The position numbers and the translations under genes are program-made. A DNA stretch of 64,000 nucleotides from Myxococcales bacterium (lineage in GTDB: Bacteria > Myxococcota_A > Polyangia > Palsa-1104): the NCBI GenBank assembly GCA_028287105.1, contig JAQBQH010000154.1, positions 28,095-92,094 of the forward strand, given 5' to 3'. The notes beneath the pieces were generated by a model. That model was given only the letters and a program-made list of their open reading frames with translations, was not told the origin of the DNA and ran no database searches. Shown piece by piece: positions 25,001-57,980 of the stretch (the first letter of the stretch is position 1; each line of letters starts with the position of its first letter).

Positions 25001-25016
25001 TTTCTGAAAGATCGGT

Positions 25017-32430: not shown

Positions 32431-32470
32431 AGCCCCCGCCCTGGTGATACGGAGCGGGGGCTTTTTTTTG
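32431..32470 (+). terminator. Intrinsic terminator / attenuator hairpin (gcccccgc...gcgggggc plus T8)
   Basis: 8-bp GC stem with a 14-nt loop followed by tttttttt. It lies between the leader ORF and the ilvD start. Confidence 0.6.
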
Positions 32471-32491
32471 GGCTCGATTCGGAGGTTCGGT

Positions 32492-34138: not shown

Positions 34139-34140
34139 GC

Positions 34141-34284
34141 CATGAGCGATGAAGACGACAAGCAGGGTCGCGACCACGAAGACACCGCACCGTTTGCCCG
34201 CGAAGAGGAGCTCAGGCGGGAGCAGGAGCACGAGCCCCTGAGCGGCTGTGACGTCGAGCATTGCCAACGGATGCACGAGTAAAG
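34141..34284 (+). CDS. Small acidic ORF (47 aa) with strong RBS between ilvD and ilvB
   Basis: GGAGG 5 nt upstream of the ATG. MSDEDDKQGRDHEDTAPFAREEELRREQEHEPLSGCDVEHCQRMHE. The C-terminus is C-x3-H-C-x3-H. GC3 is lower than in neighbouring genes. Confidence 0.35.
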
Positions 34285-34291
34285 GCGACGT

Positions 34292-35996: not shown

Positions 35997-36349
35997 GCGC
36001 CAAGGGATCCGCTCAACCGGCGCCGGCAGCGCCGGCGACACCGCAGGCGCAGTCGCTGCGCACGTTCATCCTGTACGTCGCCGACAAGCCGGGCGTCCTC
36101 GATCGCGTGGCGTCGCTGTTCCGCCGCCGCGCCTTCAACATCGAAGCGCTGACCGTCGCGCGCACCGAGCGCAGCGGCATCTCGCGCATGCTCGTCGAAG
36201 TGCGCGCCACCGACGACGAGGCCCGTCGCCTCGTCGCCAATATGTACAAGCTCTACGACGTCGTCTCAGTCACCGACATCACGCTCACCGAAGAGGAGAA
36301 TTCCAAATGGCACAAGTCTTCTACGACAACGACGCGGACCTCGAGCTAG
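35993..36349 (+). CDS. ilvN: Acetolactate synthase small (regulatory) subunit, short ACT-domain form
   Basis: ATGA overlap with the ilvB stop. ACT-domain sequence [33 protein letters not shown]. The 3' end overlaps ilvC by 43 nt. Confidence 0.75.
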
Positions 36350-37320
36350 TCAAGGCGCGCAAGGTCGCGGTCGTCGGCTACGGCTCGCAAGGCCACGCCC
36401 ACGCGCTGAACCTCCGCGACTCCGGCGTCGACGTACGCGTCGCGCTCCTGCCGGGATCGCGCCGCCGCCCCGTCGCCGAGAAGCTCGGCTTCACCGTCGA
36501 GACGCCGGCCGCGGCCGCGGCCTGGGCCGACGTCATCGTCATCCTGGCGCCCGACACCGCGCAGCCGACGCTGTGGGCGGAGTCGATCGCGCCGCAGCTG
36601 CGCCCGGGGCAGACCATCGTCTTCGCGCATGGCTTCAACATCCGCTTCGGCGGCATCGTTCCGCCGCCCAAGGTCGACGTCGTCCTCGTCGCTCCCAAGG
36701 GTCCCGGACATCGCGTGCGCGAGACCTACGCCGAAGGCGGCGGTGTGCCGGCGCTCGTCGCGGTCCATCAGGATGCCAGCGGCCAGGCGCACCAGATGGC
36801 GCTCTCGTACGCCAAGGGCATCGGCGCCACCCGCGCCGGCGCGCTCGCGACCACGTTCGCGGAGGAGACCGAGACCGATCTCTTCGGCGAGCAGGCCGTC
36901 CTGTGCGGCGGGCTCTCGGAGCTGGTCAAGGCCGGCTTCCAGACGCTGACCGAAGCGGGCTACCAGCCCGAGGTCGCCTACTTCGAGTGCCTCCACGAGC
37001 TCAAGCTGATCGTCGATCTCATGTATCGCGGCGGGCTCAACTACATGCGCCACTCGGTGAGCGACACCGCCGAATGGGGTGACTACGTCGCCGGCAAGCG
37101 CCTGATCGACAAGAACGTGCGCGCCGAGATGAAGAAGCTGCTCGAGGAGATCCAGTCGGGCAAGTTCGCCAAGGAGTGGATGGCCGAGCACCAGACGGGC
37201 CGAAAGCAGTTCGAAGCGACACGCAACAGCGAGCGGGAGCAGCCGGTCGAGGTCGTGGGACGGAAGCTTCGCAAGATGATGCCGTTCCTCGACGCTGTGA
37301 CCCTGACGCCCGGAGACTGA
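36307..37320 (+). CDS. ilvC: Ketol-acid reductoisomerase (class I)
   Basis: GAGGAG RBS. The N-terminus [40 protein letters not shown] is canonical for class I KARI. Confidence 0.95.
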
Positions 37321-37325
37321 TCACC

Positions 37326-38960
37326 ATGGAAGCGTCCGACTACGTACGTATCTTCGACACGACCCTGCGCGACGGCGAGCAATCGCCGGGCGCCACCATG
37401 AACGCCGCCGAGAAGCTGGAGATCGCCCGTGCGCTCGCCCGGCTCGGCGTCGACATCATCGAGGCGGGATTTCCCGCGGCGTCACCGGATGATCTGGCAG
37501 CGGTGCGCAGCGTCGCCGAGCAGGTGGGCCGGAGCGATCGCGCGCCGGTCATCTGCGCGCTGGCGCGGGCGTCCGCCCACGACATCGACCTCGCGTGGGA
37601 AGGCGTGCGGCTGGCCATCCGGCCGCGCATCCACACCTTCATCGCCACGAGCGAGCTGCACATGCGCCACAAGCTGCGCATGTCGCGCGCCGAGGTGGTC
37701 GAGCGAGTACGCAAGACCGTACGTCACGCGCGCAACCTGTGCGACGACGTCGAGTTCAGCGCCGAGGACGCGGGGCGCAGCGACCACGAGTTCTTGTGGA
37801 CCGTCGTCGAGGCGGCCATCGAGGCCGGCGCCACCACCATCAACATCCCCGACACCGTCGGCTACACCGTCCCCGACGAGTTCGGGGCGCTCATCGCCGG
37901 GATCATCTCGCACGTTCCCAACGTCGACAAGGCGATCCTCTCGGTCCACTGCCACGACGATCTCGGGCTCGCCAACGCCAACACGCTCGCGGGCCTGAGG
38001 GCCGGTGCGCGCCAGGCGGAGGTGACCATCAACGGCATCGGCGAACGTGCCGGCAACTGCGCGCTCGAGGAGCTGGTGATGGGGCTGCATACGCGCTTCT
38101 GGCTGCATCGGTTGCGCTCGGGCATCGACACCACGCAGCTCGTGCGCACCTCGCGGCTGGTGGCGAGCGTGACGGGAATTCCGGTGCCGCCCAACAAGGC
38201 GGTCGTCGGCGCCAACGCGTTCGCGCACGAGTCGGGCATCCATCAGGACGGCATGATCAAGAACGCCGAGACCTACGAGATCATGTCGCCGGCGACGGTG
38301 GGCGCGGGCGCGACGCAGCTGGTGCTCGGCAAGCACTCGGGGCGGCACGCGTTCGCCAAGCGCCTCGGGGAGCTGGGGTACCTGCTCGAGGACGCGCAGC
38401 TCGACTCGGCGTTCGCGCGCTTCAAGCACACGGCCGAGCGCAAGAAGTCGGTCACCGATGCGGAGCTCGAGGCGCTCATCGCCGCCGAGCTGCCGGAGCG
38501 CGCCGATCTCTGGTCGCTCGAAGCGCTGCAGGTCGGCTGCGGGACGCTCAGCCTGGCGACGGCGTCGGTGCGGCTACGCGCGCCCGACGGCACGACCCGC
38601 GTCGCGGCGGCCGTCGGTACCGGGCCCGTCGATGCCGCTTACCGCGCCATCGATGATCTGGTGTGCCGTCCGGCGCAGCTGGTCGATTACAGCGTGCGCT
38701 CGGTGACGGGCGGGATCGACGCGCTCGCCGAAGTGTCGGTGCGCGTGGTGTCGAACGAGAACGCCACCGTGCGCCCGCTGCACCCGCAACATGACGCGCT
38801 GCCCGAGTCGTCGACGTGGCGTGGACACGGTGCCGATACCGACATCGTGGTGGCCAGCGTCAAGGCGTACCTGGCGGCGCTCAATCGCATGATGGCGGCG
38901 GCGGTCGCCTTTCGCGCAGTGGCGGCGGCCGTAGCCGTCGAGGAGGTCTCGAGTCGATGA
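37326..38960 (+). CDS. leuA: 2-isopropylmalate synthase
   Basis: [22 protein letters not shown], the [13 protein letters not shown] motif and a C-terminal LeuA regulatory domain. Confidence 0.9.
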
Positions 38961-40348
38961 AGTCCCCGACGTTGCCCCAAACACTATTCGACAAGATCTG
39001 GCAGGAGCACGTCGTCGCGCATGACGACGGCTGCCCGGCCGTCCTGTACGTCGATCTGCACCTCGTGCACGAGGTGACCTCGCCGCAGGCGTTCGCCGGA
39101 TTGCGGGCGCGCGGGCTCGGGCTGCGGCGGCCGGAGAAGACCGTCGCCACGATGGATCACTCGACGCCGACGACGCCGGGGCTCGTCATCGTCGACGACC
39201 AGGCGCGGGCGCAGCTGCAGCAGCTGGCCAAGAACTGCGTCGACTTCGGCGTGCAGTGCTACGGGCTCGACTCCGATCAGCGCGGCATCGTCCACGTGAT
39301 CGGACCCGAATTGGGGCTCACGCAGCCGGGCATGACCATCGTCTGCGGCGACAGCCACACCGCCACCCACGGCGCCTTCGGGGCGCTCGCGTTCGGCATC
39401 GGCTCGTCGGAGGTCGAGCATGTGCTGGCGACGCAGTGCCTCCTCCAGAAGCGGCCCACGTCGCTCGAGGTGCGCGTCGACGGCATGCTGCCGCGCGGCG
39501 TGACGGCCAAGGATCTGATCCTGGCGGTCATCGCGCGCATCGGCGTCGACGGCGGCAACGGCGCGGTCATCGAGTACACCGGAGACGCCATCCGCGCGCT
39601 CGACATGGAGGCGCGGATGACCGTGTGCAACATGTCGATCGAAGCGGGCGCGCGTGCGGGCCTCGTCGCGCCCGACGACACGACGTACCAGTACCTGGCC
39701 AAGCGGCAGTTCGCGCCCAAGGGCGCGGACTGGGAACGCGCGGTCGCCAACTGGCGGCAGCTCCCCAGTGACGAGGGCGCCGAGTATGACGTGAGCGTCG
39801 TCCTCGACGCGCAGGCGCTGCAGCCGATGATCACCTGGGGCACCAATCCCGGGCAGGGCATCCCGATCAACGACAACCTACCCGACGCGCGCTCGGGCGC
39901 CGAGGAGAAGGCGTTCAAGTACATGGCGCTCGAGCCGGGCAAGCCGCTCGTCGGCCATCCGATCGACGTCGTCTTTGTCGGGTCGTGCACCAACGGGCGC
40001 ATCGCCGATCTGCGGCAGGCAGCGCGCATCTTCGACGGACGTCGCGTCGCCACCGGCGTGCGCACGCTGGTGGTGCCGGGCTCGTACGCGGTCAAGCGGC
40101 AGGCCGAGGCCGAGGGTCTCGACCGCATCTTCCGCGACGCCGGCGCCGAGTGGCGCGAGCCGGGCTGCTCGATGTGCATCGCCATGAACGGCGATCAGAT
40201 CGAGGCCGGCCAGTACGCGGTGTCGACGTCGAATCGCAACTTCGAAGGACGGCAGGGGCGCGGCGGTCGCACCTTCCTCGCCTCACCGCTCACCGCCGCC
40301 GCCGCTGCCGTCACCGGCAAGGTCACCGATCCGAGGGCGCTCCTATGA
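38957..40348 (+). CDS. leuC: 3-isopropylmalate dehydratase large subunit
   Basis: AGGAGG RBS. ATGA overlap with leuA. Aconitase-family motifs VCGDSHT, GSCTNGR and CSMCIAMN. Confidence 0.9.
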
Positions 40349-40905
40349 AGAAGGTCGAGATCATCCGCTCGCGTCTGAACCCGCTGCTCGTCGACGACGT
40401 CGACACCGACCAGATCATTCCGGCGCGCTTTCTGAAGACGATCGGCCGCGTGGGGCTCGGTGCCAACCTCTTCGCCGATTGGCGCGGCGCGCGCTTCGAC
40501 GCTTCGTCCGACGCGCGCATCCTCCTGGCCGGAAACAACTTCGGCTGCGGCTCGTCACGCGAGCACGCGGTCTGGGCGCTGGCCGACTTCGGGTTCCAGG
40601 CGGTGATCGCACCGTCGTTCGCGGACATCTTCCAGGCCAACGCGCTCAAGAACGGCCTCGTGCCGGTGGCGGTCGAAGCTGCGGTGCACCGCCACCTCGT
40701 CGCCGCGCGCGCGCAGGATGCGGAGCTGACGGTGCGAATCGACGTGCGTAAGTCGACGCTGGTGTTGCCCGATCAGGAGGAGGTGCCGTTTCCTCTCGAT
40801 CCGTTCGCGCGCCGCTGCCTGACCGACGGCATCGACGAGCTGGACTATCTGCGACAGCACGAGGGCCAGATCGCCGAGTGGGAGGCGCGTCATGCTCGAG
40901 GTTGA
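40345..40905 (+). CDS. leuD: 3-isopropylmalate dehydratase small subunit
   Basis: ATGA overlap with leu[14 protein letters not shown] motif. Size is 186 aa. Confidence 0.9.
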
Positions 40906-42493
40906 GATCTTCGACACCACCTTGCGCGACGGCACGCAGCGCGAGGGGCTGTCGCTCTCGGCGGCGGACAAGATGCGCATCGCCGAGCGGCTCGATCAGC
41001 TCGGCGTGGCCTATATCGAGGGCGGCTGGCCGGGCTCGAACCCGAAGGACGTGGAGTTCTTCGCACGCGCGCGCGAACGGGCGTGGCAGCGGGCCGAGAT
41101 CGTCGCCTTCGGATCGACGCGGCGCGCCGACACGGCGGTCGAGAAGGACCCGGGGTTGCGCGCGCTCGTCGACGCCGGCACCAACGTCTGCGCGATCTTC
41201 GGCAAGAGCTGGACGCTTCACGTCGAGCGGGTGTTGCGCACCACACGCGACGAGAATCTGAAGATGATCGAAGAGAGCGTGCGCTTCTTGCGGCTGTCGG
41301 GCCGGCGCGTCATCTACGACGCCGAGCACTTCTTCGACGGCTGGCGCAACGACGCGGCCTATGCGCTGGCGACGCTGGCCGCGGCCGCGCGTGGCGGCGC
41401 CGAGACGGTCGTCTTGTGCGACACCAACGGCGGCTCCTTGCCGTGGGAGATCACCGAAGCGGTGCTGTCGGCGAAGGCGGCGCTGCCGGACGTGCGCCTC
41501 GGCATTCACGCGCACGACGACGCCGGCTGCGCGGTCGCCAACACGCTCGCGGCGGTGCGCGCGGGCGCCCGCCACGTGCAGGGGACGATCAACGGCTGGG
41601 GCGAGCGCTGCGGCAACGCCAACCTGTGCGCCGTGATGCCCGACCTCGAGCTGAAGCTGGGGATGCGCTGTCTGCCGACGGGGGCGCTGATGGAGCTCTG
41701 CGAGCTGTCGCGCTTCGTGTGCGACGTCGCCAACCTGATGCCCGACGATCACATGCCCTACGTCGGGCGCAGCGCGTTCGCGCACAAAGGCGGCGTGCAC
41801 GTGGCGGCGATGCGCCTGGCGCCCGGCGCCTACGAGCATGTCGAGCCGGCGCGCGTCGGCAACCAGACTCGCGCGGTGGTGAGCGAGCTCTCCGGTCGCG
41901 CGACGCTGTTGCAGAAGGCCGACGAGCACGGCGTGACGCTCGATGCGGCCGACGCGGCCATCTTGATCCGCAGCATCAAGGATCGCGAGGCGGACGGTTA
42001 CGCGTTCGAGTCGGCCGAGGCGTCGGTGGAGCTGATGATGCGACGGACGGCGGCCGACTACGTGGCGCCCTTCCGGCTCATCGGCTATCGCATCACCGTC
42101 GGACAGCAGCAGCACGAGCCGCCGGTCTCGGAGGCGACGCTCATGATCGACGTGGCCGGGCGCATCCTGCATACGGCGGCGACGGGCGACGGTCCGGTGC
42201 ATGCGCTGGACGGCGCGCTGCGCCGCGCGCTCGAGCCGGCCTTTCCGCAGATCGCGTCGATCCGGCTGGTCGACTACAAGGTGCGCATCGTCGACGGGCG
42301 CGACGGCACGGCGGCGACGACGCGCGTGCTGCTCGATGCCACCGACGGGACGCGGCGCTGGAGCACGCTGGGCGCGTCGCCCAACATCGTCGAGGCGTCG
42401 TGGCACGCGCTCGCCGATTCGATCGAGTGGGCAGTGGCGGCGCGACCGGCCGTGCAGGTGCGCTCGCTCGCGACGCCGGCGGTGGCGACGTGA
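40892..42493 (+). CDS. cimA: (R)-citramalate synthase-like LeuA-family enzyme
   Basis: [36 protein letters not shown] and a C-terminal LeuA_dimer-like domain. It is ~530 aa, shorter than LeuA and of the CimA type. It overlaps leuD by 14 nt and leuB by 4 nt (GTGA). Confidence 0.7.
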   Translation: MLEVEIFDTTLRDGTQREGLSLSAADKMRIAERLDQLGVAYIEGGWPGSNPKDVEFFARARERAWQRAEIVAFGSTRRADTAVEKDPGLRALVDAGTNVCAIFGKSWTLHVERVLRTTRDENLKMIEESVRFLRLSGRRVIYDAEHFFDGWRNDAAYALATLAAAARGGAETVVLCDTNGGSLPWEITEAVLSAKAALPDVRLGIHAHDDAGCAVANTLAAVRAGARHVQGTINGWGERCGNANLCAVMPDLELKLGMRCLPTGALMELCELSRFVCDVANLMPDDHMPYVGRSAFAHKGGVHVAAMRLAPGAYEHVEPARVGNQTRAVVSELSGRATLLQKADEHGVTLDAADAAILIRSIKDREADGYAFESAEASVELMMRRTAADYVAPFRLIGYRITVGQQQHEPPVSEATLMIDVAGRILHTAATGDGPVHALDGALRRALEPAFPQIASIRLVDYKVRIVDGRDGTAATTRVLLDATDGTRRWSTLGASPNIVEASWHALADSIEWAVAARPAVQVRSLATPAVAT

Positions 42494-43557
42494 GCGCGCA
42501 CGCGCATAGGATTGTCGTCCTCGGTGGCGACGGCATCGGGCCCGAGGTCTGCGCGGCGGCGCGCTCGGTGCTCGAGGCCGTCGCCGCCAAGGACAGCTTC
42601 ACGCTGACGTTCGAGGACAAACTGCTCGGCGGCTGCGCCATCGACGCGCACGGCACTGCGCTGCCCGACGATACGCTGGAGGCGTGCAAGCGCGCCGACG
42701 CGGTGCTGCTCGGCGCGGTCGGCGGTCCCAAGTGGGACGACCCGACGGCGAAGGTGCGACCGGAGCAGGGGCTGCTCGGCTTGCGGCGTGCGCTCGGGCT
42801 CTACGCGAACTTGAGGCCGGTGCGGCCGCATGCGGCGCTGGCCGACGTCTCGCCGCTCAAGGCCGACCGGCTCGCCGGGGTCGACATCATCGTCGTGCGC
42901 GAGCTGACCGGCGGCATCTACTTCGGCCAGCCGCGGCGGCGCGAGACCGTCGACGGCGTCGAGAAGGCCATCGACACGCTCGAGTACACCGACGTCGAGA
43001 TCCGGCGCGTCGTGCGGCTGGCGTTCCGGCTGGCGAGCGAGCGGAAGCAGCATGTCACGTCGATCGACAAGGCCAACGTGCTCGAGTCGTCGCGGCTGTG
43101 GCGCCAGGTGGCCACCGCCGTCGGCGCCGAATTCCCGTCGGTGAGCCTGGACCATCAGCTGGTCGATTCGGCGGCGATGCGGCTCATCACCGAGCCGGCG
43201 CGTTACGACGTCATCGTCACCGAGAACATGTTCGGCGACATCCTCACCGACGAGGCGGCGGTATTGGCCGGGTCGCTGGGGCTGTGCCCGTCGGCGTCGC
43301 TGGGAGATGGGCGCGCGGGTCTGTACGAGCCGATCCACGGCTCGGCGCCGGACATCGCCGGACGCGGCATCGCCAATCCGATCGGGACCATCGCCTCGGC
43401 GGCGATGCTGCTGCGCCATTCACTCGGCGCGCCGGCGTCGGCGGCGCGTATCGAGCGCGCGATCGATTCGGCGCTGGCCGATGGCCTGCGCACCAAGGAT
43501 ATCGGTGGCGGATTGGGGAGCGATGCGATGACGGAGGCGATCCTGAAGCGACTGTGA
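42490..43557 (+). CDS. leuB: 3-isopropylmalate dehydrogenase
   Basis: GTG start. RIVVLGGDGIGPEV and NMFGDILTDEAAVLAGSLGL motifs. Confidence 0.9.
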   Translation: MSAHAHRIVVLGGDGIGPEVCAAARSVLEAVAAKDSFTLTFEDKLLGGCAIDAHGTALPDDTLEACKRADAVLLGAVGGPKWDDPTAKVRPEQGLLGLRRALGLYANLRPVRPHAALADVSPLKADRLAGVDIIVVRELTGGIYFGQPRRRETVDGVEKAIDTLEYTDVEIRRVVRLAFRLASERKQHVTSIDKANVLESSRLWRQVATAVGAEFPSVSLDHQLVDSAAMRLITEPARYDVIVTENMFGDILTDEAAVLAGSLGLCPSASLGDGRAGLYEPIHGSAPDIAGRGIANPIGTIASAAMLLRHSLGAPASAARIERAIDSALADGLRTKDIGGGLGSDAMTEAILKRL

Positions 43558-43559
43558 TG

Positions 43560-44189
43560 CTACGAGCAGGGCCCCGGCGTGGTCACGTCAGCGGCGATCT
43601 TGCTGTGCACGCAGTGCGTGCTCGGGTCGGCGGCGGCGGCGCTGAGGTGATAGATGCGGCACTGGACGGTGTTGCCGCTGGTGTCGCCGGCCTTGCCGCC
43701 GGTCGGAATGCCGGTGCACTTGGTCATGCACATTGCCGCGTCGTAGACGGCGTTGGCGCCGGTGCAGTTCTTGGCCATGAGCTGGCAGTAGTTCTCGCAG
43801 TACGTCCCGCAGACGTTGCCGCCGGTGGGGCCGGCGTGCGGACAGTGGAGAACCGGATCGGCCGCGGCGGCGCCCGCGTGATAGGTGCGGCACGCGATGG
43901 TGTTGCCGCTGGTGGCGCCGGTGGTGCCGGCGGTCCATCCGGCCGAGGCGGTGCAATAGGTGTTGCAGGCCGCGGTGCTCGTGTATTGCACGTTGCCGCC
44001 GCCGCCGTCGCCCGAGGTGCAGTTCATGGCGATCTTGGCGCAATAGTCGGTGCAGGTCGGGCCGCCGCCGGTCGTCGCGAGATCGCGCGGCATCGACATG
44101 TCGCTGCCGCCACCGGTCGTTGTGTCATCGCCGCAACCGCCGGCGAGCATCATGGTGCCGAGCATTGCGAGCGCGAACGAAGTGCGCAT
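43560..44189 (-). CDS. Cys-rich lipoprotein with internal tandem domain duplication
   Basis: Lipobox MMLAGGCG. Two ~80-aa repeats each contain C..YC..NC...GNTxxCRxYHxxAAAADPxxHCxH. Confidence 0.55.
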   Translation of the reverse strand: MRTSFALAMLGTMMLAGGCGDDTTTGGGSDMSMPRDLATTGGGPTCTDYCAKIAMNCTSGDGGGGNVQYTSTAACNTYCTASAGWTAGTTGATSGNTIACRTYHAGAAAADPVLHCPHAGPTGGNVCGTYCENYCQLMAKNCTGANAVYDAAMCMTKCTGIPTGGKAGDTSGNTVQCRIYHLSAAAADPSTHCVHSKIAADVTTPGPCS

Positions 44190-44230
44190 ACGGCCTCCCC
44201 TTGGTTTGAACGAATAAGGGTCTCATCATA

Positions 44231-44426
44231 GATTCGGAGTGCCATGCGAGCCAGATTTCTCGCTATTGCCACCGCGGCAACGCCTGTTGCGCGCGCGGCA
44301 TGTTGCGGCGGCGTCGAATCCCGATAGAGTCGGAGTGGCATGCGAGCGAGAATGATCGGTATTGCCGTCGCGGCGTCAGCGATTGCGCTGGCGGCAGGTT
44401 GCGGCGGATCGTCGAATCCCGCGCCG
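44231..44426 (+). repeat. Imperfect ~95-nt direct duplication of the 5' end (RBS, start and signal peptide) of the downstream lipoprotein gene
   Basis: Copy 1 (44231-44324) encodes a truncated MRARFLAIATAATPVARAACCGGVESR*. Copy 2 (44328-44426) is the real gene start, with an 18-nt insertion relative to copy 1. Confidence 0.6.
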
Positions 44427-46334: not shown

Positions 46335-47390
46335 TTACCGATACCGCTTTTGCAGCTTGGCCAGCGTCGCGGCGCCCGGCACCAGCTCTTCGTACGGCAC
46401 CTCGGTGAGCGGCTTCTTCACCGTCTTGTTGTTGTCGTGCAGGTCCAGCGAATCGGGCGACACGTACAAGAGCCCGGTCACCACCTCGCCCGACTTGGCG
46501 CGCTCGCGCAGATACGAATAGGCGCGGTCCTTGTCGGTCGGGTCGTAGTTGCCGTCGATGCGGCGGAAGCGGATGACGCTGCCGTCGTGCAGCCGCACCT
46601 CGGGCGTCGAGCCCGCGTCGGCCGGCAGCGAGATCTCCTTGCGCAGCGGCACGAAGTCGACGTCGTCCACCTCGTGCAGATGCTCGCGCGTGTGCGCGTA
46701 GCTCTTGGTCGACCCGTCGTGATCGTTGAACGTCACGCACGGCGAGATGACGTCGACGAAGGCGAAGCCCTTGTGCTTGAGGCCCGCCTTCAAGATCGGC
46801 ACCAGCTGCTCTTTGTCGCCCGAGAAGCTGCGCGCCACGAACGTCGCGCCCAGCGTCAGCGCCAGCATCGCCCCGTCGATGGCCTCGAACGGATTGGCCT
46901 CGCCGCGCTTGGCCAACGAGCCGCGATCCGCCGACGCCGAAAACTGTCCCTTGGTCAGGCCATACACGCCGTTGTTCTCGAGAACGTAGAGCATGTTCAC
47001 GTTGCGGCGGATGATGTGGCACAGCTGCCCGAGGCCGATCGACAACGAGTCGCCGTCGCCGCTGATGCCGATGTACGTCAGATCCTGGTTGGCCGCGTTG
47101 GCCCCCGTCGCGATGGACGGCATGCGCCCGTGCACGCTGTTGAACCCGTGCGCGTTCTTCAGGAAGTAGGTCGGCGTCTTCGACGAGCAGCCGATGCCCG
47201 ACAGCTTGGCCACGCGATGCGGCTCGAGGTCGAGCTCCCAGAACGCGTGGATGAGCGCGCCCGTGACCGAGTCGTGCCCGCAGCCCGCGCACAGCGTCGA
47301 CATCGCGCCTTCGTAATCGCGCCGCGTCAGCCCAATCGCGTTCTTCTGCAGGCTGGGATGGTGAACCTTCGGCTTGGCGATGTAGGTCAC
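46335..47390 (-). CDS. korB: 2-oxoacid:ferredoxin oxidoreductase beta subunit (TPP-binding)
   Basis: GGGAGG RBS followed by a GTG start. CAGCGH, GIGCSS and GDGDSLSIG (TPP GDG) motifs. GTGA overlap with the korA stop. Confidence 0.85.
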   Translation of the reverse strand: MTYIAKPKVHHPSLQKNAIGLTRRDYEGAMSTLCAGCGHDSVTGALIHAFWELDLEPHRVAKLSGIGCSSKTPTYFLKNAHGFNSVHGRMPSIATGANAANQDLTYIGISGDGDSLSIGLGQLCHIIRRNVNMLYVLENNGVYGLTKGQFSASADRGSLAKRGEANPFEAIDGAMLALTLGATFVARSFSGDKEQLVPILKAGLKHKGFAFVDVISPCVTFNDHDGSTKSYAHTREHLHEVDDVDFVPLRKEISLPADAGSTPEVRLHDGSVIRFRRIDGNYDPTDKDRAYSYLRERAKSGEVVTGLLYVSPDSLDLHDNNKTVKKPLTEVPYEELVPGAATLAKLQKRYR

Positions 47391-49210
47391 GACTGCGCCT
47401 CCCGCGCGACGACCTGCGGCTTCAGATGCGCGGTCACGCCCGAAACGATGTGGTGGCTCGACATCGGGAAGCCGCCGTAATAGCGGATCGACTTCAGCTT
47501 CTCGACGGGAATGCCGGTCTCGATCTGGATCATCGTGCGCAGCTGTCCGTCGCGGTTCGACTCGACGATGAACACCGAGTCGTGCGCGTCGATGAAGTCG
47601 CGCACCGACTTCGCGAACGGGAAGGCGCGCACGCGCAGGTAGTCGACGCCGATGCCCTGACGTCCCAGGTCCTCGAGCGCTTCGCGACACGCGCCGTCGT
47701 TCGACCCGACGGTGATGATGCCGAGCTTGTGCCCCTTGCCGATGATGACCGGCTGCGGCAACGCCTCCGCCGCGCTGTTGATCTTGCGCGCGATGCGGTC
47801 CACGACCTCGACGTACTCGCCGCCGTCCTCGGTGTAGCCGCCGAGCTTGTTGTGGCCGGAGCCGCGCGTGAAGTAGGCGCCCTTGGCGCTGGTCCCCGGC
47901 AGCGTGCGCGCCGCGATGCCGTCGCCGTCGACGTCGAGGTAGCGATGGAACGCCTGCATCTTGTCGAGCTCGGCCGCGGTGAAGACCTTGCCGCGATCGG
48001 GACGATAGGCGTCGTCCCAGGTGAGCTCCTTGACCATCCAGTCGTTCATGCCGATGTCGAGATCAGACAGCACGAACACCGGCGTCTGGAAGCGATCGGC
48101 CGCGTCGAACGCCTGCACCGCGAGGTGGAAGCACTCCTCGGGATTGGCCGGGAAGATGACGAGGTGCTTGGTATCGCCGTGCGACGCATACGCGCACAGC
48201 ATGAGGTCGCCCTGCTGCGTGCGGGTCGGCATCCCCGTCGACGGACCGGTGCGCTGCACGTCGAAGATGACCGCCGGAATCTCCGCGTAGTAGGCGAGCC
48301 CGATGAACTCCGACATGAGCGAGATGCCGGGGCCGCTGGTCGGCGTGAACGAGCGCGCGCCCATCCACGACGCGCCGATGACCATGCCGATGGCGGACAG
48401 CTCGTCTTCCGCCTGCAAAATCGCGTAGCGCTTGGTTCCGTCGGGGTTCTCGCGGAACTGCTGGCAGAACGACTTGAACCCCTCCATCAGCGACGTGGCC
48501 GGCGTGATCGGATACCACGCGCCCACCGTCGCGCCGGCATACACGCAGCCGAGCGCCGCCGCGGTGTTGCCGTCGATCAAGATGTGGCCCGCGGTCTTGT
48601 CCATCTTCGCCAGCCGAATCGGCAGCGGACACGAGAAGTGCTTCTTGGCGTAATCGAACCCGAGCGCCAGCGCCTTTTCGTTCGACGCCAGCAGCGCCGC
48701 CTTCCGCCCGTAGGTCGCCTTGATGAGCTCGGCGATGATCTCCATGTCGAGATCGAGCAGCGCCGCCAGCGCCCCGGCGTAGGCGATGTTCTTCATGAGG
48801 ATGCGCTCGCGCCCGCCGGCGAACGCTTCGTTCACCATGTGCGCCAGCGGAATGCCGAGGATGGTCACATCCTCGCGCATCAGCTCCGCCGCCAGCGGCC
48901 AGGTCGAGTCATACAAGAGCCAGCCGCCCGAGCGCACCTCGGCCACGTCCTTCTTGTAGGTCGCCGGATTGAGCGCGACGAACAGATCGAAGTCGGGCGT
49001 GCGGGCGGTGTGGCCGTCCTTGTTGACGCGGATCTCGTACCACGTCGGCAGTCCCTGGATGTTCGACGGGAACACATTCTTCCCCGACACCGGAATGCCC
49101 ATGCGGAAGATCGCCTGCATGATGAGGCCGTTCGCGCTCGCGGATCCCGACCCGTTGGGAGTCGCGATCTTGAAAGCGAAGGCGTTGACGCGTTCTGGGA
49201 AGTTGATCAC
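47387..49210 (-). CDS. korA: 2-oxoacid:ferredoxin oxidoreductase alpha subunit with fused gamma-like N-domain
   Basis: Start (GTG) MINFPERVNAFAFKIATPNGSG (gamma/POR_C-like), followed by the alpha domain (GNTAAALGCVYAGATVGAWYPITP). The track ORF's N-terminal extension is antisense overlap with the upstream gene. Confidence 0.85.
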   Translation of the reverse strand: MINFPERVNAFAFKIATPNGSGSASANGLIMQAIFRMGIPVSGKNVFPSNIQGLPTWYEIRVNKDGHTARTPDFDLFVALNPATYKKDVAEVRSGGWLLYDSTWPLAAELMREDVTILGIPLAHMVNEAFAGGRERILMKNIAYAGALAALLDLDMEIIAELIKATYGRKAALLASNEKALALGFDYAKKHFSCPLPIRLAKMDKTAGHILIDGNTAAALGCVYAGATVGAWYPITPATSLMEGFKSFCQQFRENPDGTKRYAILQAEDELSAIGMVIGASWMGARSFTPTSGPGISLMSEFIGLAYYAEIPAVIFDVQRTGPSTGMPTRTQQGDLMLCAYASHGDTKHLVIFPANPEECFHLAVQAFDAADRFQTPVFVLSDLDIGMNDWMVKELTWDDAYRPDRGKVFTAAELDKMQAFHRYLDVDGDGIAARTLPGTSAKGAYFTRGSGHNKLGGYTEDGGEYVEVVDRIARKINSAAEALPQPVIIGKGHKLGIITVGSNDGACREALEDLGRQGIGVDYLRVRAFPFAKSVRDFIDAHDSVFIVESNRDGQLRTMIQIETGIPVEKLKSIRYYGGFPMSSHHIVSGVTAHLKPQVVAREAQS

Positions 49211-49221
49211 GTTGTTTCCTG

Positions 49222-51003
49222 TTACTTGCTGCACGACTGTTTCTCGCCTGCGTGGGGATGGAACAGCTCGAACTTCACCATGTCCCACGCATGCGTGGGG
49301 CAACGCTCGGCGCAGAGGCCGCAGTGCAGGCAGACGTCCTCGTCTTTGACCATGACGCGGCCGGTCTGCTTGAGATCGAACGACAGGAACAGCTCCTGCT
49401 TCTGATTCTTCGCCGGCGCGAGCAGCCGCGTGCGCAGCTCCGGCTCCTCGCCGTTCTTGGTGATCGTCAGGCAGTCCATCGGGCAGACGTCGATACACGC
49501 GTCGCACTCGATGCACGCCTTGGTCACGAAGCCGGTCTGGATGTCACAGTTGAGGCAGCGCTCGACCTCGGCCTTGGTCTGCTCGATCGAGAAGCCGAGC
49601 TCCACTTCCATCGTCAAGCTGGTGAGGCGCTTGGTCAGATCGACGTGCTCCATCTTGGCGCGCGCCGCGCCCGAGTAGTCGTTGGAGTACGACCACTCGT
49701 GCAGCCCCATCTTCGTCGACGACAGGTTCTGCCCCTGCTTCGGGCGATCGGTCACCGCCACGCCCTGGCAGTGGTTGTGGATCGAGATGGCCGCCTGGTG
49801 CCCATGCTCGACGGCCCAGATGATGTTCTCCGGTCCCCACGCCGCGTCGCCGCCGAAGAACACGCCCGGCCGCGTCGACATGAACGTCGCCTTGTCGACG
49901 ACCGGCATGTTGTCTTTGAACTCGAGCCCGATGTCGCGCTCGATCCAGGGGAACGCGTTCTCCTGACCGATGGCGAGAACGACCACGTCGGCCGGCAGGA
50001 TGATGTTGTCGATCTTCTCCTGCCTGAGCTTGCCGTCCTTCTCGACCGACTTGAAGCGCTCGAACTCCATGCCGCTGAGCTTGCCGTCCTCGTAGACGAA
50101 GCGCACCGGCGAGAGGTCCTCGAGGATGTCGACCTTCTCCTCTTCGGCGTCCTCGAGCTCCCACGGCGACGCCTTGAAGTACTTGCGCGGCTTTCGACCG
50201 ATGACCTTGACGCTGGTGGCGCCGAGGCGCTTGGCCGAGCGGCAGCAGTCCATGGCGGTGTTGCCGACGCCGATGATGAGCACCGTCGGCTCGACCTTGG
50301 TCGTGTGGCCGAAGTGGATCGACTCGAGCCAGTCGATGCCGATGAAGATCTTGTCCGAGTCGTAGCGCCCGGGGACGTCGAGGTTCTTGCCGCGCGGCGC
50401 GCCCGAGCCGACGAACACCGCGTCGAAGCCGCCGTCGTCGAGCAGCTTCTTCAGGCTGGCGACCGGCGTCGAGTAGCGGATGTCGACGCCCATGTTGATG
50501 ATGTAGCCGCACTCCTCGTCGAGCACCTTGGCCGGCAGGCGGAACGACGGGATGTTGGTGCGCATGAGACCACCCGGACGATCGAGCTTCTCGAAGATCG
50601 TGACGTGATAGCCGAGCGGCACCAGATCGTTGGCGACCGTGAGCGACGCCGGGCCGGCGCCGATGAGCGCCACACGCTTGCCGTTCTTCTGCGTGGGCGC
50701 GGTCGGCAGGTACGGCGTCACGTCGTCGCGATAATCGGCGGCGACGCGCTTGAGCCTGCAGATGGCGACCGGCTTACCGTCGACGCGACCGCGGCGACAC
50801 GCGGGCTCGCACGGACGATCGCAGGTACGGCCGAGGATTCCCGGAAACACGTTGCTCTTGCGATTCAACATGTACGATTCGGTGAATCGCCCTTGAGCGA
50901 TCAACCGGATGTATTCCGGAATATTGGTGTGCGCCGGACAAGCCCACTGGCAGTCGACGACCTTGTGGAAGTAGCGCGGGTCCGAAACGTCCGTGGGCTG
51001 CAT
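49222..51003 (-). CDS. GltD-like (glutamate-synthase small-chain fold) NAD(P)H flavoprotein with C-terminal 2x[4Fe-4S] ferredoxin domains
   Basis: AAGGAG RBS. N-terminal Cys cluster. FAD/NAD Rossmann motifs VALIGAGPASL and VLIIGVGNTAMD. C-terminal CIECDACIDVCP and CLHCGLCAERCP. Confidence 0.8.
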   Translation of the reverse strand: MQPTDVSDPRYFHKVVDCQWACPAHTNIPEYIRLIAQGRFTESYMLNRKSNVFPGILGRTCDRPCEPACRRGRVDGKPVAICRLKRVAADYRDDVTPYLPTAPTQKNGKRVALIGAGPASLTVANDLVPLGYHVTIFEKLDRPGGLMRTNIPSFRLPAKVLDEECGYIINMGVDIRYSTPVASLKKLLDDGGFDAVFVGSGAPRGKNLDVPGRYDSDKIFIGIDWLESIHFGHTTKVEPTVLIIGVGNTAMDCCRSAKRLGATSVKVIGRKPRKYFKASPWELEDAEEEKVDILEDLSPVRFVYEDGKLSGMEFERFKSVEKDGKLRQEKIDNIILPADVVVLAIGQENAFPWIERDIGLEFKDNMPVVDKATFMSTRPGVFFGGDAAWGPENIIWAVEHGHQAAISIHNHCQGVAVTDRPKQGQNLSSTKMGLHEWSYSNDYSGAARAKMEHVDLTKRLTSLTMEVELGFSIEQTKAEVERCLNCDIQTGFVTKACIECDACIDVCPMDCLTITKNGEEPELRTRLLAPAKNQKQELFLSFDLKQTGRVMVKDEDVCLHCGLCAERCPTHAWDMVKFELFHPHAGEKQSCSK

Positions 51004-51083: not shown

Positions 51084-52205
51084 CTACGGAAAGACGTAGC
51101 GCGTCACGGTAAGACCGTTGTCACCGCCGGCCATGACGAAGACGGTGCCGTCGTCGTCGACGGTGACGGGCCGGAAGCTCTCGTCCGCCGCCGGGAGCGG
51201 TGGAGTTTCCAAAACGCCGCGAGGAGCGCCGCCGCCGCCCAGGCGGGCGATGACCAGCTTCTCGTCGACGAGCGCGTAGGGCGGCGTGGGCGCCTCGTGG
51301 CCGACGTCGACGGCGAGGTAGATCATGCCGCGGCGATCGGAGTCGAGCGCCACGATGTGGACGATCGGCGCGCCGAGCCGGATGGCCTGCTCCCACGCGG
51401 GCAACCCAGTGGAGCGATCGACCGCGCGCACCACCACGTCACCGGTGGAGCGATCGCCGATGGCCGCCGCCAGGAGCAGGCGGCCGTCGCGCGAGGGGCG
51501 CCCGAGCAGCTCGGGCCGGGCCGGATCGGCCCGACCACTGGCGTCGGCGATGCGCACCACGCTCTCGTGATCGCGCTCGACGTAGATGCCGTCGTCGTCG
51601 GTGAAGAGGCCGGTGACGCCCCCGTTGTCGGTGACGCCCTTGCCGCCGAGTGACAGGGTGTCGAGCAATTTGCCGTCGGGGCCGTAGCTCTGCACGTTAC
51701 CGTCGGCGAGGCGGTCGAGCACCAGGAGGCGCCCGTCCCTGGTCAGCGTCAGATCCTGCACCGTGTCGCCGCCGAGATCGACGGTGCCGCTGAGCTTGCC
51801 GTTCTTGTAGCGCAGGATGCGGCGGTTGACCTGATCGACGACCGCGAGCTGGCCGGCGGGACCGGCCGCTACCGCCATCGGCGCTTCCGGATTCGACTCC
51901 GGATCGCGACGCCGTCCGAACTGGCCCGGCGCCCCGCCCCACGCGCCCTGGACCACGACGGTACCGGCGGCGCTGGTGCGCGCTGCCGTCGGCAGCATCG
52001 GCCCCGCCGGTGGGGTAGGGACCTCGCTCGCCGCCGCCGTCGCCGGCGCCCCCGATTGACCGGGGGAGCCGGGGACCGTCGACGGCGGCGCCGAAGAGCG
52101 CACGCTCGCGCCGCGAAGCGCGAAGCCGACCAAGAGGGTCGCAATCAGGAGCGCACCCACCACGAGCCCGCGCTGCCAACTGAACACGGAAGAGAGCGCC
52201 TTCAT
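51084..52205 (-). CDS. Membrane-anchored hypothetical protein, possible beta-propeller
   Basis: N-terminal TM LVVGALLIATLLVGFAL, a Pro-rich linker, then repeated DG-containing beta segments. It lies 1 nt downstream of the SH3b/CHAP lipoprotein gene. Confidence 0.5.
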   Translation of the reverse strand: MKALSSVFSWQRGLVVGALLIATLLVGFALRGASVRSSAPPSTVPGSPGQSGAPATAAASEVPTPPAGPMLPTAARTSAAGTVVVQGAWGGAPGQFGRRRDPESNPEAPMAVAAGPAGQLAVVDQVNRRILRYKNGKLSGTVDLGGDTVQDLTLTRDGRLLVLDRLADGNVQSYGPDGKLLDTLSLGGKGVTDNGGVTGLFTDDDGIYVERDHESVVRIADASGRADPARPELLGRPSRDGRLLLAAAIGDRSTGDVVVRAVDRSTGLPAWEQAIRLGAPIVHIVALDSDRRGMIYLAVDVGHEAPTPPYALVDEKLVIARLGGGGAPRGVLETPPLPAADESFRPVTVDDDGTVFVMAGGDNGLTVTRYVFP

Positions 52206-54381: not shown

Positions 54382-56439
54382 ATGAGCGGCAAAGAGACAC
54401 CGGCCACGACGGCGCCGAGCAACTTCATTCGCGAGCGCATCCTCGAGGATCAGGCCTCGGGGAAGTTCCAGGGGCGCGTCGCGACGCGCTTTCCGCCCGA
54501 GCCCAACGGCTACCTCCACATCGGCCACGCCAAGGCGATCTGGGTCGACTTCGGGCTGGCGAAGGAGTTCGGCGGCACCTGCAACCTGCGCTTCGACGAC
54601 ACCAACCCGACCACCGAAGATGTCGAGTACGTCGACGCCATCCAGCACGACATCCGCTGGCTCGGATACGAGTGGTCGAGCCTCCATTTCGCGTCCGACT
54701 ACTTCGAGGAGCTCTATCAGCTCGCCGAGAAGCTGATCCAAAAGGGCGATGCCTACGTCGACAGCCTCGACGCCGAGCAGATCCGCGAGTACCGCGGCGA
54801 CTACTACAAGAAGGGGAAGGCGAGCCCCTATCGCGACCGCTCCGTCGCCGAGAACCTCGAGCTGTTCCGCGGCATGCGCGCGGGCAAGTTCAAGGAGGGC
54901 GAGCACGTCCTGCGCGCCAAGATCGATCTCGAGACGCAGAACATGAACCTGCGCGATCCGATCTTGTATCGCATCCGCTACGCGCACCATCACCGTACCG
55001 GCGACAAGTGGTGCATCTATCCGCTCTACGATTTTGCGCACCCGCTGTCGGACGCGAGCGAGAAGATCACCCACTCGATCTGCACGCTCGAGTTCGAGTC
55101 GCACCGCCCGCTCTACGACTGGTGCATCGGCGAGGCCGAGGTCTTCCCGTCGCAGCAGATCGAGTTCGCGCGGCTGAACCTGACCTACACCATCATGTCG
55201 AAGCGGAAGTTCATCGAGCTGGTCGACAAGAAGATCGTCGACGGCTGGGATGACCCGCGCATGCCGACGCTGGCGGGCATGCGGCGGCGCGGTTACACGC
55301 CCAAGGCGATCCGCAACCTGTGCGAGCGCACCGGCGTGGCCAAGGCCAACTCGACCGTCGACGTCGGGCTCCTCGAGCACTGCCTGCGCGAAGATCTCAA
55401 CGCCAGCGCCAAGCGCGTCATGGCGGTGTTGAAGCCGCTCAAGGTGGTCATCGAGAACTTCCCCGAGGGCCAGACGCGGGAGCTCGAGGCGCCGCTTCAT
55501 CCCGACGACGCGACGCGCGGCACGCGCAAGCTGCCCTTCTCGCGCGTGGTCTACATCGAGCAGGACGACTTCCGCGAAGATCCGCCCAAGGAGTTCTTCC
55601 GCCTGGCGCCGGGCAAGGAGGTGCGGCTGCGCTACGCGTGCCTGCTCACCTGCACCGACGTCATCAAGGACGCGAACGGCGAGGTGGTCGAGCTGCGCTG
55701 CAAGATGGACCCCGAGTCGTGGGGCGGGACCTCGCCCGACGGCCGCGTGGTGCGCGGCACCTTGCACTGGGTCTCGGCGGCGCACGCCGTCGACGCCGAG
55801 GTGCGCCTGTACGACCGACTGTTCGCGGTCGAGTTTCCCGGCACCACCGAGGGCAAATCGTTCCTCGAGGAGATCAATCCGCACTCGCTCGTGCGCGTGC
55901 AGGCCAAGCTCGAGCCGTGGCTGGCGACGGCGCCGCGCGGCGAGACGGTGCAGTTCGAACGGCTCGGATATTTCCGCCACGACGAGGCGGGCGGCTGGAA
56001 TCGCGCCGTCACGTTGAAAGACACGTGGGCCAAGATCGAGAAGAAGCTGCCGGCCCCGCCGCCCAAGAAATCGGAGAAGAAGAAAGTGGAGACGACAACG
56101 CCGGCCGCGCCCGCCAACGCGAGCGAGATTGGCATCGAAGAGTTTGCGAAAGTGGACCTGCGCGTCGGCCTCGTCAAAGAGGCGGGCCTCGTCGAAGGCG
56201 CCGATAAGCTGATCCGCGTCGTCGTCGATCTCGGCGAAGGGCGCGACCGGCAGATCTTCGCCGGGCTGCGCGCGAGCTATCCCGATCCGGCGGTGCTCGT
56301 CGGACAGCGCGTGGTCGTCGTCGCCAACTTGAAGCCGCGCCAGATGAAGTTCGGCCTGTCCGAGGGGATGATCCTCGCCGCCGGCAAGATGGTGCTCGCC
56401 GCCGACGCGTCGGCCAAGCCGGGCGACAAAGTCTCGTGA
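54382..56439 (+). CDS. glnS: Glutaminyl-tRNA synthetase with an appended C-terminal tRNA-binding (EMAP/Trbp111-like) OB domain
   Basis: HIGH (GYLHIGHAK) and KMSKS-like (IMSKR) motifs. There is near-collinear similarity to E. coli GlnRS across the catalytic and anticodon-binding domains. The last ~110 aa ([11 protein letters not shown]...ADKL...[21 protein letters not shown]) form a tRNA_bind OB fold. Confidence 0.85.
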
Positions 56440-57980
56440 CCGTACGCACGCGGTTCGCGCCGTCGCCGACGGGCTTTCTGCACATCGGCGGCGTCCGCAC
56501 CGCCCTCTTCAACTATCTGTTCGCCAAGCAGCAGGGCGGCCGGTACATCTTGCGCATCGACGACACCGACCAGGAGCGCAACGTCGAGTCGGCGCTGGCG
56601 CCCATCCTCCACGGCTTTCGCTGGCTCGGGATCGAGTGGAACGAAGGGCCCGAGGTCGGCGGTCCGCACGCGCCCTACTTCCAGTCCAAGCGCGGCGCGC
56701 GTTACCAGGAGGCGGTCGATGCGCTGCTCGCATCGGGGCACGCCTATCGCGACTACGCGCGGCCCGAGGAGCTCGACGTCGAGCGCAAGGCGGCCGAGGC
56801 CGAGAAGCGACAGTTTCAATATTCCCGTCGCTGGATGGCGTCGAGCGCCGAAGATCGCGCGCGCTTCGAAGGCGAGGGGCGCAAGTGGGTGGTGCGGCTC
56901 AAGATGCCGCGCGAAGGCAAGCTGGTGCTGCCCGACCTGGTCCGCGGCGACGTCGAGTTCCAGTGGGCGCAGGAGGCCGACCACGTCATCCAGCGCGGCG
57001 ACGGCAGCTTCATCTACCACCTGGCCAACGTCGTCGACGATCGCGACTTCGAGATCTCGCACGTCATCCGCGCCGAGGAGCATCTGTCGAACACGCCGCG
57101 GCAGCTGTTCATGGTGCAGGCGCTCGGCTATCCGATGCCGAAGTACGCGCACCTCCCCGTCGTCGCCGAGCCGGGCTCGAAGCGCAAGCTGTCGAAGCGC
57201 AAGCTCGAGCAGTACTTGAAGAACCCCGACTTCAAGAAGGTGCACGACCACGGCACGCAGATCGCGCAGGCGATGAGGCTGACGACGGCGGCCGAGACCT
57301 TCAACCCGGTCATCGTCGACTTCTACGAGCAGGTCGGCTATCTGCCCGACGCCATCGTCAACTACCTCCTGCTGCTCGGCTGGTCGCTCGACGACAAGAC
57401 CGAGTTCTTCACGCGCGACGAGATGGTCAAGAGCTTCTCGCTCGAGCGCGTGCAGGGCGCGCCGGCCAGCTTCGATCCGATGAAGCTGCAGGCGTTCCAG
57501 ATGCGCTACATGCAAGAGCTGCCGCTCGCCGAGAAGGTGGCGCGGGCGCGGCCGTTCGTCGACAAGGCCGGCCTCACCGTCGACGACGCAAAGCTGGCGC
57601 GCGTGGTCGAGGCGCTCGGCGATCGCATCAAGGTGTTCGGTGACATCCTCATCCAGGGCGCCTTCTTCTTCGGCGAAGACGTCAGCTACGACGAGAAGGC
57701 CTGGCAGAAGCGCGTCATGGCGCCGGGCGCGGTCGACAAGCTGGCCGAGTACCGCGGCTGGCTCGCCGGGCGCGAGGCGTTCGACGCGGCGTCGCTCGAC
57801 CGGGACACGCAGGCGTGGCTGGCCGAGCGCGGCTGGGCGCTCGGCGACATCGTTCACGCCGTACGCGTCGCAGCGACCGGCGCCGCCGGGGGACCGGGCC
57901 TCTTCGAGTGCCTCGCGCTCATTGGCAAGGCCACCTGCATTCACCGTCTCGACCGCGCGCTCGCTCGCGCGCGCGGCTGA
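56436..57980 (+). CDS. gltX: Glutamyl-tRNA synthetase
   Basis: GTGA overlap with the glnS stop. [19 protein letters not shown] (HIGH) and LSKRK (KMSKS) motifs. Confidence 0.9.

Follow-up and report, generated by a model that had tools for sequence, protein, structure and literature searches.

Appending an OB-fold (oligonucleotide/oligosaccharide-binding fold) domain of the Trbp or EMAPII type is a classic route by which aminoacyl-tRNA synthetases acquire affinity for tRNA. Glutaminyl-tRNA synthetase (GlnRS) belongs to class Ib, is canonically monomeric and requires bound tRNA even for the activation of glutamine. Here we analyse a glnS gene of a Myxococcales bacterium which is located in a 64-kb stretch of contig JAQBQH010000154.1 (the whole stretch is referred to as the window). 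It encodes a GlnRS carrying such an OB-fold domain at its C-terminus and overlaps with a downstream gltX gene for glutamyl-tRNA synthetase (GluRS).

Direct fusions of synthetases and OB domains are listed for MetRS, PheRS and TyrRS together with examples from Entamoeba, and GlnRS is not named among them (PMC11286949). Such fusions lower the Km for tRNA, and Arc1p requires a basic middle domain in addition to the OB fold (PMC11286949). Trbp111 dimerises by an unusually stable interface made of its N-terminal (residues 1-15) and C-terminal (residues 90-111) segments. This interface is mimicked by EMAPII and Arc1p, and the Trbp111-type interface is thought to dimerise certain MetRSs (PMC11286949). 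In the Trbp111-tRNA co-crystal published in 2024 only the 3'-terminal C75-A76 is gripped and not the elbow. The pocket consists of K33, R75, I77, F78, S82 and M85, and binding suffers when these residues are mutated (PMC11286949).

The appendices noted for GlnRS are YqeY only, plus one unexplained extension in Flavobacterium (PMC3927822). In Deinococcus the YqeY appendix is connected by a long flexible linker and enhances the affinity for tRNA(Gln) (PMC1865053, PMC3927822). GlnRS of Anaeromyxobacter, a member of the Myxococcota, carries YqeY as well (PMC3927822). The Deinococcus enzyme is thus a precedent on GlnRS for an appendix at the C-terminus which increases tRNA affinity. In the literature searched (full text), including two surveys on how GlnRS and GluRS evolved in bacteria and the OB-fold paper of 2024, no description of a fusion between GlnRS and tRNA_bind was found. 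Hundreds of database proteins display the architecture in their precomputed Pfam annotations, hence it is unstudied rather than undiscovered. It combines two known kinds, that of synthetases with a Trbp-type domain acting in cis and that of GlnRSs with a tRNA-affinity appendix at the C-terminus.

Domain architecture of the GlnRS-OB protein

The features of glnS are as follows.

54382..56439, + strand: glnS coding sequence, 685 aa plus TGA; fusion of GlnRS core, linker and tRNA_bind domain (open reading frame, Pfam, NCBIfam)
54478..55401, + strand: class I catalytic (Rossmann-fold) domain, aa 33-340; PF00749 tRNA-synt_1c, 344 bits
55408..55983, + strand: GlnRS-type anticodon-binding beta-barrel domains, aa 343-534; PF03950 and PF20974
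56038..56130, + strand: flexible Lys/Pro/Ala-rich linker, approximately aa 553-583 (model confidence, variable length, low identity)
56131..56436, + strand: Trbp111/MetRS-C-type OB-fold tRNA-binding domain, aa 584-685, C-terminal; PF01588
56332..56370, + strand: L45 loop motif, aa 651-663, with the equivalents of Trbp111 R75, I77, F78, S82 and M85 (alignment and residue list of PMC11286949)

The open reading frame is limited at its 5' end by TTG at 54361 or ATG at 54382 and ends with TGA at 56437-56439 on the + strand. In an alignment of 49 sequences, which comprises 48 relatives, Met1 of the ATG at 54382 is invariant and the N-terminus is aligned. The protein is 100% identical to the database entry P0001, annotated as 'glutaminyl-tRNA synthetase [Myxococcales bacterium]' and derived from a Myxococcales metagenome-assembled genome (MAG).

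Residues 1-552 represent a standard bacterial GlnRS core. The anticodon-binding part is composed of tRNA-synt_1c_C (PF03950, aa 343-443, 111 bits) and tRNA-synt_1c_C2 (PF20974, aa 460-534, 71.9 bits); both of them and PF00749 exceed their own cutoffs. The glnS equivalog model TIGR00440 is covered over its entire length (profile positions 1-524 of 524) and scores 680.8 bits (cutoff 425.8). The class I signatures are found as HIGH at aa 46-49 and IMSKRK, the MSK motif, at about aa 271-276. Furthermore, the core is 53-55% identical to the GlnRS structures of E. coli and P. aeruginosa, and its AlphaFold model superimposes on the E. coli enzyme with a TM-score of 0.92 and a root-mean-square deviation of 2.7 Å. 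This bears out the initial annotation, which had considered the first ~560 aa as canonical GlnRS. In a search against the PDB the P. aeruginosa and E. coli enzymes scored 669 and 652 bits, respectively, and Deinococcus GlnRS 485 bits. The alignment to P. aeruginosa GlnRS indicates that the motifs TRFPPEPNG and CIYPxYDF are retained, which we take to be the carriers of Arg30 and Tyr211 in E. coli GlnRS.

The core is followed by a Lys/Pro-rich linker, as predicted beforehand, which starts near aa 553. Its residues 564-583 show an AlphaFold confidence (predicted local distance difference test, pLDDT) below 50, compared to mostly 80-97 in the GlnRS core and 86-93 in the OB fold. Among 124 GlnRS-OB fusions the linker varies from 15 to 71 aa with a median of 32 and consists of ~25% K+R.

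The C-terminal part is a genuine tRNA_bind OB fold. PF01588 matches aa 593-682 with 76.9 bits (cutoff 27, E 1.3e-21) and is covered from position 1 to 95 of 96, so that the domain search suggested with the initial annotation gave a clear match. The module had been estimated at ~110 aa; the OB domain is present, but its length is rather ~100 aa. On the C-terminal 125 aa the model TIGR00399 (metG_C_term) almost reaches its cutoff (115.3 versus 116.65 bits), whereas the CsaA models of NCBIfam give 27-29 bits and stay far below their cutoffs of 120-171. The best PDB matches of the C-terminal 105 aa are the C-terminal domains of MetRS, 6wq6 (99.6 bits, E 1e-27) and 38li (90.9 bits), followed by Aquifex Trbp111 (1pyb, E 2.5e-19, and 8vtz, 73 bits) of which residues 7-110 are aligned. 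Structures of EMAPII/AIMP1 score approximately 28-37 bits. An EMAPII-type pseudo-dimer extension of ~60-70 aa is absent from the window GlnRS, as the protein ends at aa 685 right after the OB fold. Because it stops there without extension, the module is of the Trbp111/MetRS-C and not of the EMAPII type. Hence the former label 'EMAP/Trbp111-type' stands in its Trbp111 part, but the EMAP part has to be dropped in view of the lacking extension and the weak score.

The closest described relative is the Trbp111-like C-terminal domain of MetRS (6wq6, 38li; 1mkh from P. abyssi). It is of the same subtype with 53-58% identity and shares the L45 loop KPR(K/Q)M(K/R)FG(I/L/V)SEGM, the C-terminal location behind a linker and the lack of a pseudo-dimer extension. 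In contrast to MetRS, the host enzyme here is GlnRS, and the window-type OB domains are split from MetRS-C and Trbp111 in the OB-domain tree (88% bootstrap). Trbp111 of Aquifex aeolicus (1pyb, 8vtz/8vu0) shows the same fold, aligned end-to-end over residues 7-110 with 48% identity. However, Trbp111 is a free-standing dimer while the window domain is fused, and the L45 loop is shifted by one residue (Trbp111 loop: KPRKIFGIESQGM). The EMAPII-type domains of AIMP1/p43, Arc1p and the C-terminus of human TyrRS share the PF01588 OB core and likewise join an OB fold to a basic region, which in Arc1p is the middle domain. They differ by the much weaker sequence match given above and by the extension mimicking a second protomer.

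The equivalents of the 3'-CA pocket were assigned via the alignment to Trbp111 and correspond to K609, R653, M655, F657, S660 and M663 in the window GlnRS. All six are present. K609 (equivalent to K33), R653, S660 and M663 are each found in 124 of 124 GlnRS-OB fusions; M655 occurs in 122 of them and F657 in 119.

Conservation and distribution of the fusion

All of the best 120 database clusters, 68-91% identical and originating from many independent metagenomes, exhibit the same four Pfam domains including PF01588. The fusion is also located on contigs of 299, 788 and 699 kb. The reading frame of glnS is continuous across GlnRS core, linker and OB domain. The G+C content at third codon positions (GC3) is 0.92 in glnS and 0.93 in gltX, with 0.81-0.95 in the other window genes. 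Compared with 48 relatives, the catalytic domain and the OB core show mean identities of 0.82 and 0.83, respectively, but the linker only 0.28. Together with the variable linker length, this pattern is the signature of two domains under selection on a flexible tether.

A search with the C-terminal domain returned many short entries named 'methionine--tRNA ligase subunit beta' with up to 90% identity. Four of them were checked (L001, L002, L086 and L087) and all turned out to be fragments of the same GlnRS-OB fusion. L001 and L002 are long-read assemblies with broken gene calls in which the synteny of lactonase, glnS and gltX is found. In L086 and L087 the short entry is the end of an uninterrupted GlnRS-OB frame (tblastn, residues 3-685 and 13-685, one frame, 61-62% identity). 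No stand-alone Trbp-like donor gene was detected near glnS in relatives, as a hidden Markov model (HMM) scan of 82 fetched loci gave tRNA_bind solely in GlnRS reading frames and in one MetRS. Likewise, there was no stand-alone close relative of the OB domain among the short candidates checked, all of which are fusion fragments. An assembly chimera or a split gene is thus ruled out, because the architecture is universal in close relatives and the short entries are pieces of the fusion.

L001 (4634-7398) and L002 (4842-8025) correspond to the ENA assemblies ERZ25039552 and ERZ25039489, and both glnS and gltX are split into several short calls there. Frameshift errors in these loci give rise to spurious database entries of a 'stand-alone tRNA_bind' and a 'MetRS beta subunit'.

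Genome contigs were scanned with patterns lying in the GlnRS core. At least four fusion loci were among the matches listed: a Myxococcota chromosome (L003), a Desulfatiglandaceae MAG (L004), a Myxococcus MAG (L005) and an Archangium MAG (L006). Further fusions occur in a Desulfomonilia MAG (L087), in a Thermodesulfobacteriota MAG (L086) and in a KSB1 protein (P0511). An appended tRNA-binding domain on GlnRS was initially regarded as unusual. This is true compared to textbook lists, but not with respect to the databases, given its presence in all of the best 120 clusters, in Desulfobacterota, in KSB1 and in Myxococcia MAGs.

Trees of the core and of the OB domain were built by simple methods (neighbour-joining with bootstrap for the core). 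The window clade is supported by 100% in the core tree and is joined by L003 (70%). Together they are sister (76%) to a Desulfobacterota group which contains L004 with and L057 and L060 without the OB domain. Deep nodes reach a bootstrap of <30%. The plain GlnRSs of L057 (1088-2872) and L060 (4432-6237) end in short Lys-rich tails, KIDKAQKQKKSSDRRR and KIEKKEKSGGS, respectively. Either a linker that was lost may have left these tails behind, or they may constitute a minimal basic appendix.

The fusions of Myxococcia carry a second OB subtype with the loop KPRALKGIESRGM. Its best PDB match is Trbp111 with 97.8 bits versus 64 bits for the MetRS domain 6wq6, an order opposite to that of the window type. 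The split of the window-type domains in the OB-domain tree, mentioned above, separates them from the Myxococcia type too. Several further loop variants exist on other GlnRS fusions. Cultured Archangium, Cystobacter and Melittangium possess a plain GlnRS of 556-570 aa which is 70-79% identical to the OB-bearing versions of the MAGs. In the core tree the OB-bearing sequences are nested among plain ones, with low internal support. Taken together, the sequences suggest that the C-terminus of GlnRS has gained tRNA-binding modules several times and probably has lost them as well.

GlnRS-like proteins with tRNA_bind and extra C-terminal sequence were also noticed in P0263 (856 aa, an MMETSP transcript of a marine microbial eukaryote), P0309 (924 aa), P0298 and P0337. 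P0309 has an N-terminal extension as in eukaryote-type GlnRS. It seems that such fusions are distinct from those of bacteria.

In Deinococcus-type GlnRS-YqeY (2hz7; NF011291) the design is the same, with a tRNA-affinity domain tethered to the C-terminal side of the GlnRS core by a long flexible linker. However, YqeY is helical and GatB-like, and the OB barrel of the window protein is an unrelated fold; no match to the YqeY domain PF02637 was obtained by Pfam in the window GlnRS. NF011291 scores 841 bits (cutoff 681) over profile positions 5-582 of 769 only. Among the representatives of 50%-identity clusters, P0241, a YqeY fusion with 61% identity, has the core most similar to that of the window protein. 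These two observations would suggest that the OB domain replaced YqeY in a Deinococcus-type core. Such a replacement is not established, because the PDB scores favour P. aeruginosa and E. coli GlnRS and the core tree, with the reservation of its weak deep nodes, keeps the window clade outside of the YqeY fusions, which group apart. The name of NF011291, 'glutamine--tRNA ligase/YqeY domain fusion protein', is a systematic misnomer for the window type and for P0395-P0507. Myxococcia GlnRSs at NCBI bear it with the OB domain (~690 aa) or without any appendix (~560 aa). As a practical point, many GlnRSs which are OB-bearing or plain are labelled as YqeY fusions by this model.

Possible functions of the appended domain

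The gene product is likely a functional glutaminyl-tRNA synthetase, with glutamine specificity predicted from the sequence, which possesses a tethered tRNA-capture module. The initial annotation proposed that the module may boost tRNA affinity. Because the 3'-CA-contact residues of Trbp111 are invariant, this stays the best functional reading.

In analogy to the MetRS module and to Arc1p, the C-terminal OB fold would bind tRNA non-specifically at the 3'-terminal CA common to all tRNAs. The basic, Lys-rich linker would probably add contacts to the tRNA body and thereby take the role of the basic middle domain of Arc1p. Through OB fold and linker combined, tRNA would become locally enriched and the Km for tRNA(Gln) would fall, and a modest, micromolar affinity would permit handing the 3' end over to the active site (see the discussion in PMC11286949). 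Moreover, the OB domain would probably turn the normally monomeric GlnRS into a homodimer, since both Trbp111 interface segments are present and the EMAPII pseudo-partner is absent. The aligned Trbp111 residues 7-110 include the N- and C-terminal flanking segments. glnS and gltX form a two-gene operon whose translation would be coupled via the overlap. Binding of tRNA, the effect on the Km and dimerisation are each predicted for the GlnRS-OB protein from these known systems.

Several points weigh against this reading. Close GlnRS cores exist in a plain form in cultured Myxococcia (70-79% identical) and in Desulfobacterota (L057, L060). Therefore the core enzyme of some lineages can do without the module. 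Furthermore, a domain gripping the 3'-CA competes for the very end that is needed in the active site. A simple Km benefit is thus assumed on the example of MetRS and Arc1p. Finally, the discriminating type of the downstream GluRS is predicted from one aligned residue (see below).

Alternatively, the OB module might mainly be a device for protein-protein contacts or dimerisation with tRNA capture being secondary. It would then either form the GlnRS homodimer or tie GlnRS to a different protein with a matching half-interface, such as the co-translated GluRS or the C-terminal domain of MetRS, as a small bacterial multi-synthetase assembly. We regard this as unlikely. Both interface segments of Trbp111 are there (residues 7-110 aligned) with no EMAPII extension after the OB fold, the interface is unusually stable and was suggested as the basis of MetRS dimerisation (PMC11286949), and a subclade retains the translational coupling with gltX. 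However, the absolutely conserved residues are those of the 3'-CA pocket and not only interface positions. The window GluRS is devoid of a tRNA_bind half-domain, and most fusion loci (L003-L006, L085-L087) have no gltX nearby. A GlnRS-GluRS complex is therefore not the general reason for the fusion.

A more far-reaching idea is that the C-terminus of GlnRS represents a hot spot at which at least three modules (YqeY, MetRS-C-like OB and Trbp111-like OB) were independently recruited in the old 'Deltaproteobacteria', because GlnRS of this lineage has by itself a weak affinity for tRNA(Gln). The window OB domain would then dimerise GlnRS such that the OB fold of one subunit holds the 3'-CCA of a tRNA, either arriving or freshly charged, for the active site of the partner. 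In the glnS-gltX subclade the target might instead be the co-translated GluRS. We give this scenario as speculation and consider it improbable. If true, GluRS as target would make the system a minimal bacterial multi-synthetase hand-off device.

It is also quite improbable that the appendage is a near-neutral or lineage-specific addition which hardly affects aminoacylation, for instance a leftover of domain shuffling, or a module with a role outside of translation such as a CsaA-like chaperone or a factor for protection or trafficking of tRNA 3' ends. Such a view could draw on the plain GlnRS in close relatives, according to which the module was repeatedly gained or lost, on the fold shared with CsaA and its weak NCBIfam matches, and on the roles in 3'-end protection and tRNA chaperoning discussed in PMC11286949. 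On the other hand, the OB core is conserved like the catalytic domain (0.83 versus 0.82 in 48 relatives), and four pocket residues are present in 124 of 124 fusions, which speaks against neutrality. The CsaA models remain at 27-29 bits with cutoffs of 120-171, in contrast to 115.3 of 116.65 for the MetRS C-terminal model.

An artefact, be it a chimeric assembly in which glnS was joined to a stand-alone Trbp gene or to the end of metG (3' end), or two genes merged by a frameshift, deserves practically no credence: nothing speaks for it apart from the short 'MetRS beta' entries (up to 90% identical) that could at first suggest a separate gene, and the chimera considered in the initial annotation is refuted by the 120 clusters from independent samples sharing the architecture, the long contigs, the conserved OB domain, the checked short entries being fusion fragments, the continuous frame with a GC3 of 0.92 and a linker that varies in length between conserved flanking domains.

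Coming back to tRNA capture, a tethered domain gripping the 3'-CA on an enzyme that needs tRNA for glutamine activation poses a sharp mechanistic question on the hand-over. Matched pairs are provided by nature, namely plain versus OB-bearing GlnRS of Myxococcia (70-79% identical) and YqeY versions in the same phylum. Hence the contribution of each appendix is directly measurable.

The glnS-gltX overlap and the surrounding genes

Downstream of the OB domain two further features are located.

56436..57980, + strand: gltX coding sequence, 514 aa, bacterial GluRS with discriminating-type signature; TIGR00464, PF00749, PF19269
56436..56439, + strand: GTGA overlap; gltX GTG at 56436-56438, glnS TGA at 56437-56439, two bases shared

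The gltX product reaches 448.3 bits with TIGR00464 (cutoff 290). The start of gltX overlaps the stop of glnS as annotated initially, by GTGA at 56436-56439 in the context GTCTCGTGACC. No alternative start codon for gltX was found ahead of the essential PSPTG/HIGH region. In L083 and L084 the same gene order is kept with a 4-nt ATGA overlap, and the flanking genes are different. GlnRS and GluRS are 81% and 82% identical to the window proteins in L083, and 72% and 73% in L084. The arrangement is absent at L085, L003-L006, L086 and L087. On the basis of gene order, glnS-gltX is a conserved two-gene operon of one Polyangia subclade and not general to the fusion. The 4-nt overlap of stop and start would couple the translation of both genes. 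A recent acquisition of glnS next to gltX, as supposed at the outset, finds no support: the GC3 lies within the range of the window and the overlap is kept in L083 and L084. No leader RNA, promoter or terminator was recognised around the operon (no Rfam match, nothing over shuffled background).

Arg397 of the GluRS is aligned with Arg358 of T. thermophilus GluRS. According to Sekine et al. 2001, Arg358 reportedly recognises C36 and is replaced in non-discriminating GluRS. A discriminating GluRS, as predicted by this residue, fits a genome with GlnRS.

Compared to the enzymes of T. thermophilus and T. maritima, the GluRS exhibits an insertion of ~35 residues after the KLSKR motif (aa 256-293). 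Among the fetched loci its closest relative is found in a Pirellulaceae MAG (L011, 657 bits, end-to-end), where gltX is located upstream of glnS. The same holds for further loci (L016, L025, L031, L036, L044, L051-L053, L058, L066 and L081), with gltX directly upstream of glnS on the same strand in each case. They comprise Planctomycetota, Acidobacteriota, Nitrospirota, Spirochaetota and other phyla, and the order is opposite to the window. Adjacency of GluRS and GlnRS genes seems to be recurrent across phyla.

Neither gatA, gatB, gatC and metG nor a gene for tRNA(Gln) is encoded in the 64-kb window (Pfam on 30 reading frames with high GC3; ARAGORN, no tRNA genes). Most delta-proteobacteria including Myxococcus xanthus keep GatCAB beside AsnRS and GlnRS (PMC4206432). 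By this analogy GatCAB is likely to be present in the window organism.

At E <= 1e-4, Pfam gave no match for two reading frames with high GC3, 51084-52205 (- strand, 373 aa) and 24386-25201 (- strand, 271 aa). In the product of the former, a hydrophobic segment at the N-terminus precedes a low-complexity sequence rich in Pro and Ala. A cluster for the biosynthesis of branched-chain amino acids spans 32444-44231 and includes the following genes.

32444-34138: ilvD-like gene
34248-35996: acetolactate synthase, large subunit
36307-37320: ilvC
37176-38960 and 40892-42493: LeuA/CimA-like genes
38816-40348: leuC-like gene of the aconitase family

The - strand regions 8204-11381 and 46335-51003 encode a transhydrogenase (pntB and a fused pntA) and a 2-oxoacid:ferredoxin oxidoreductase set with a Fer4/Pyr_redox partner. 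The 2-oxoacid:ferredoxin oxidoreductase set is also found upstream of glnS in L083, so that the synteny is partly conserved.

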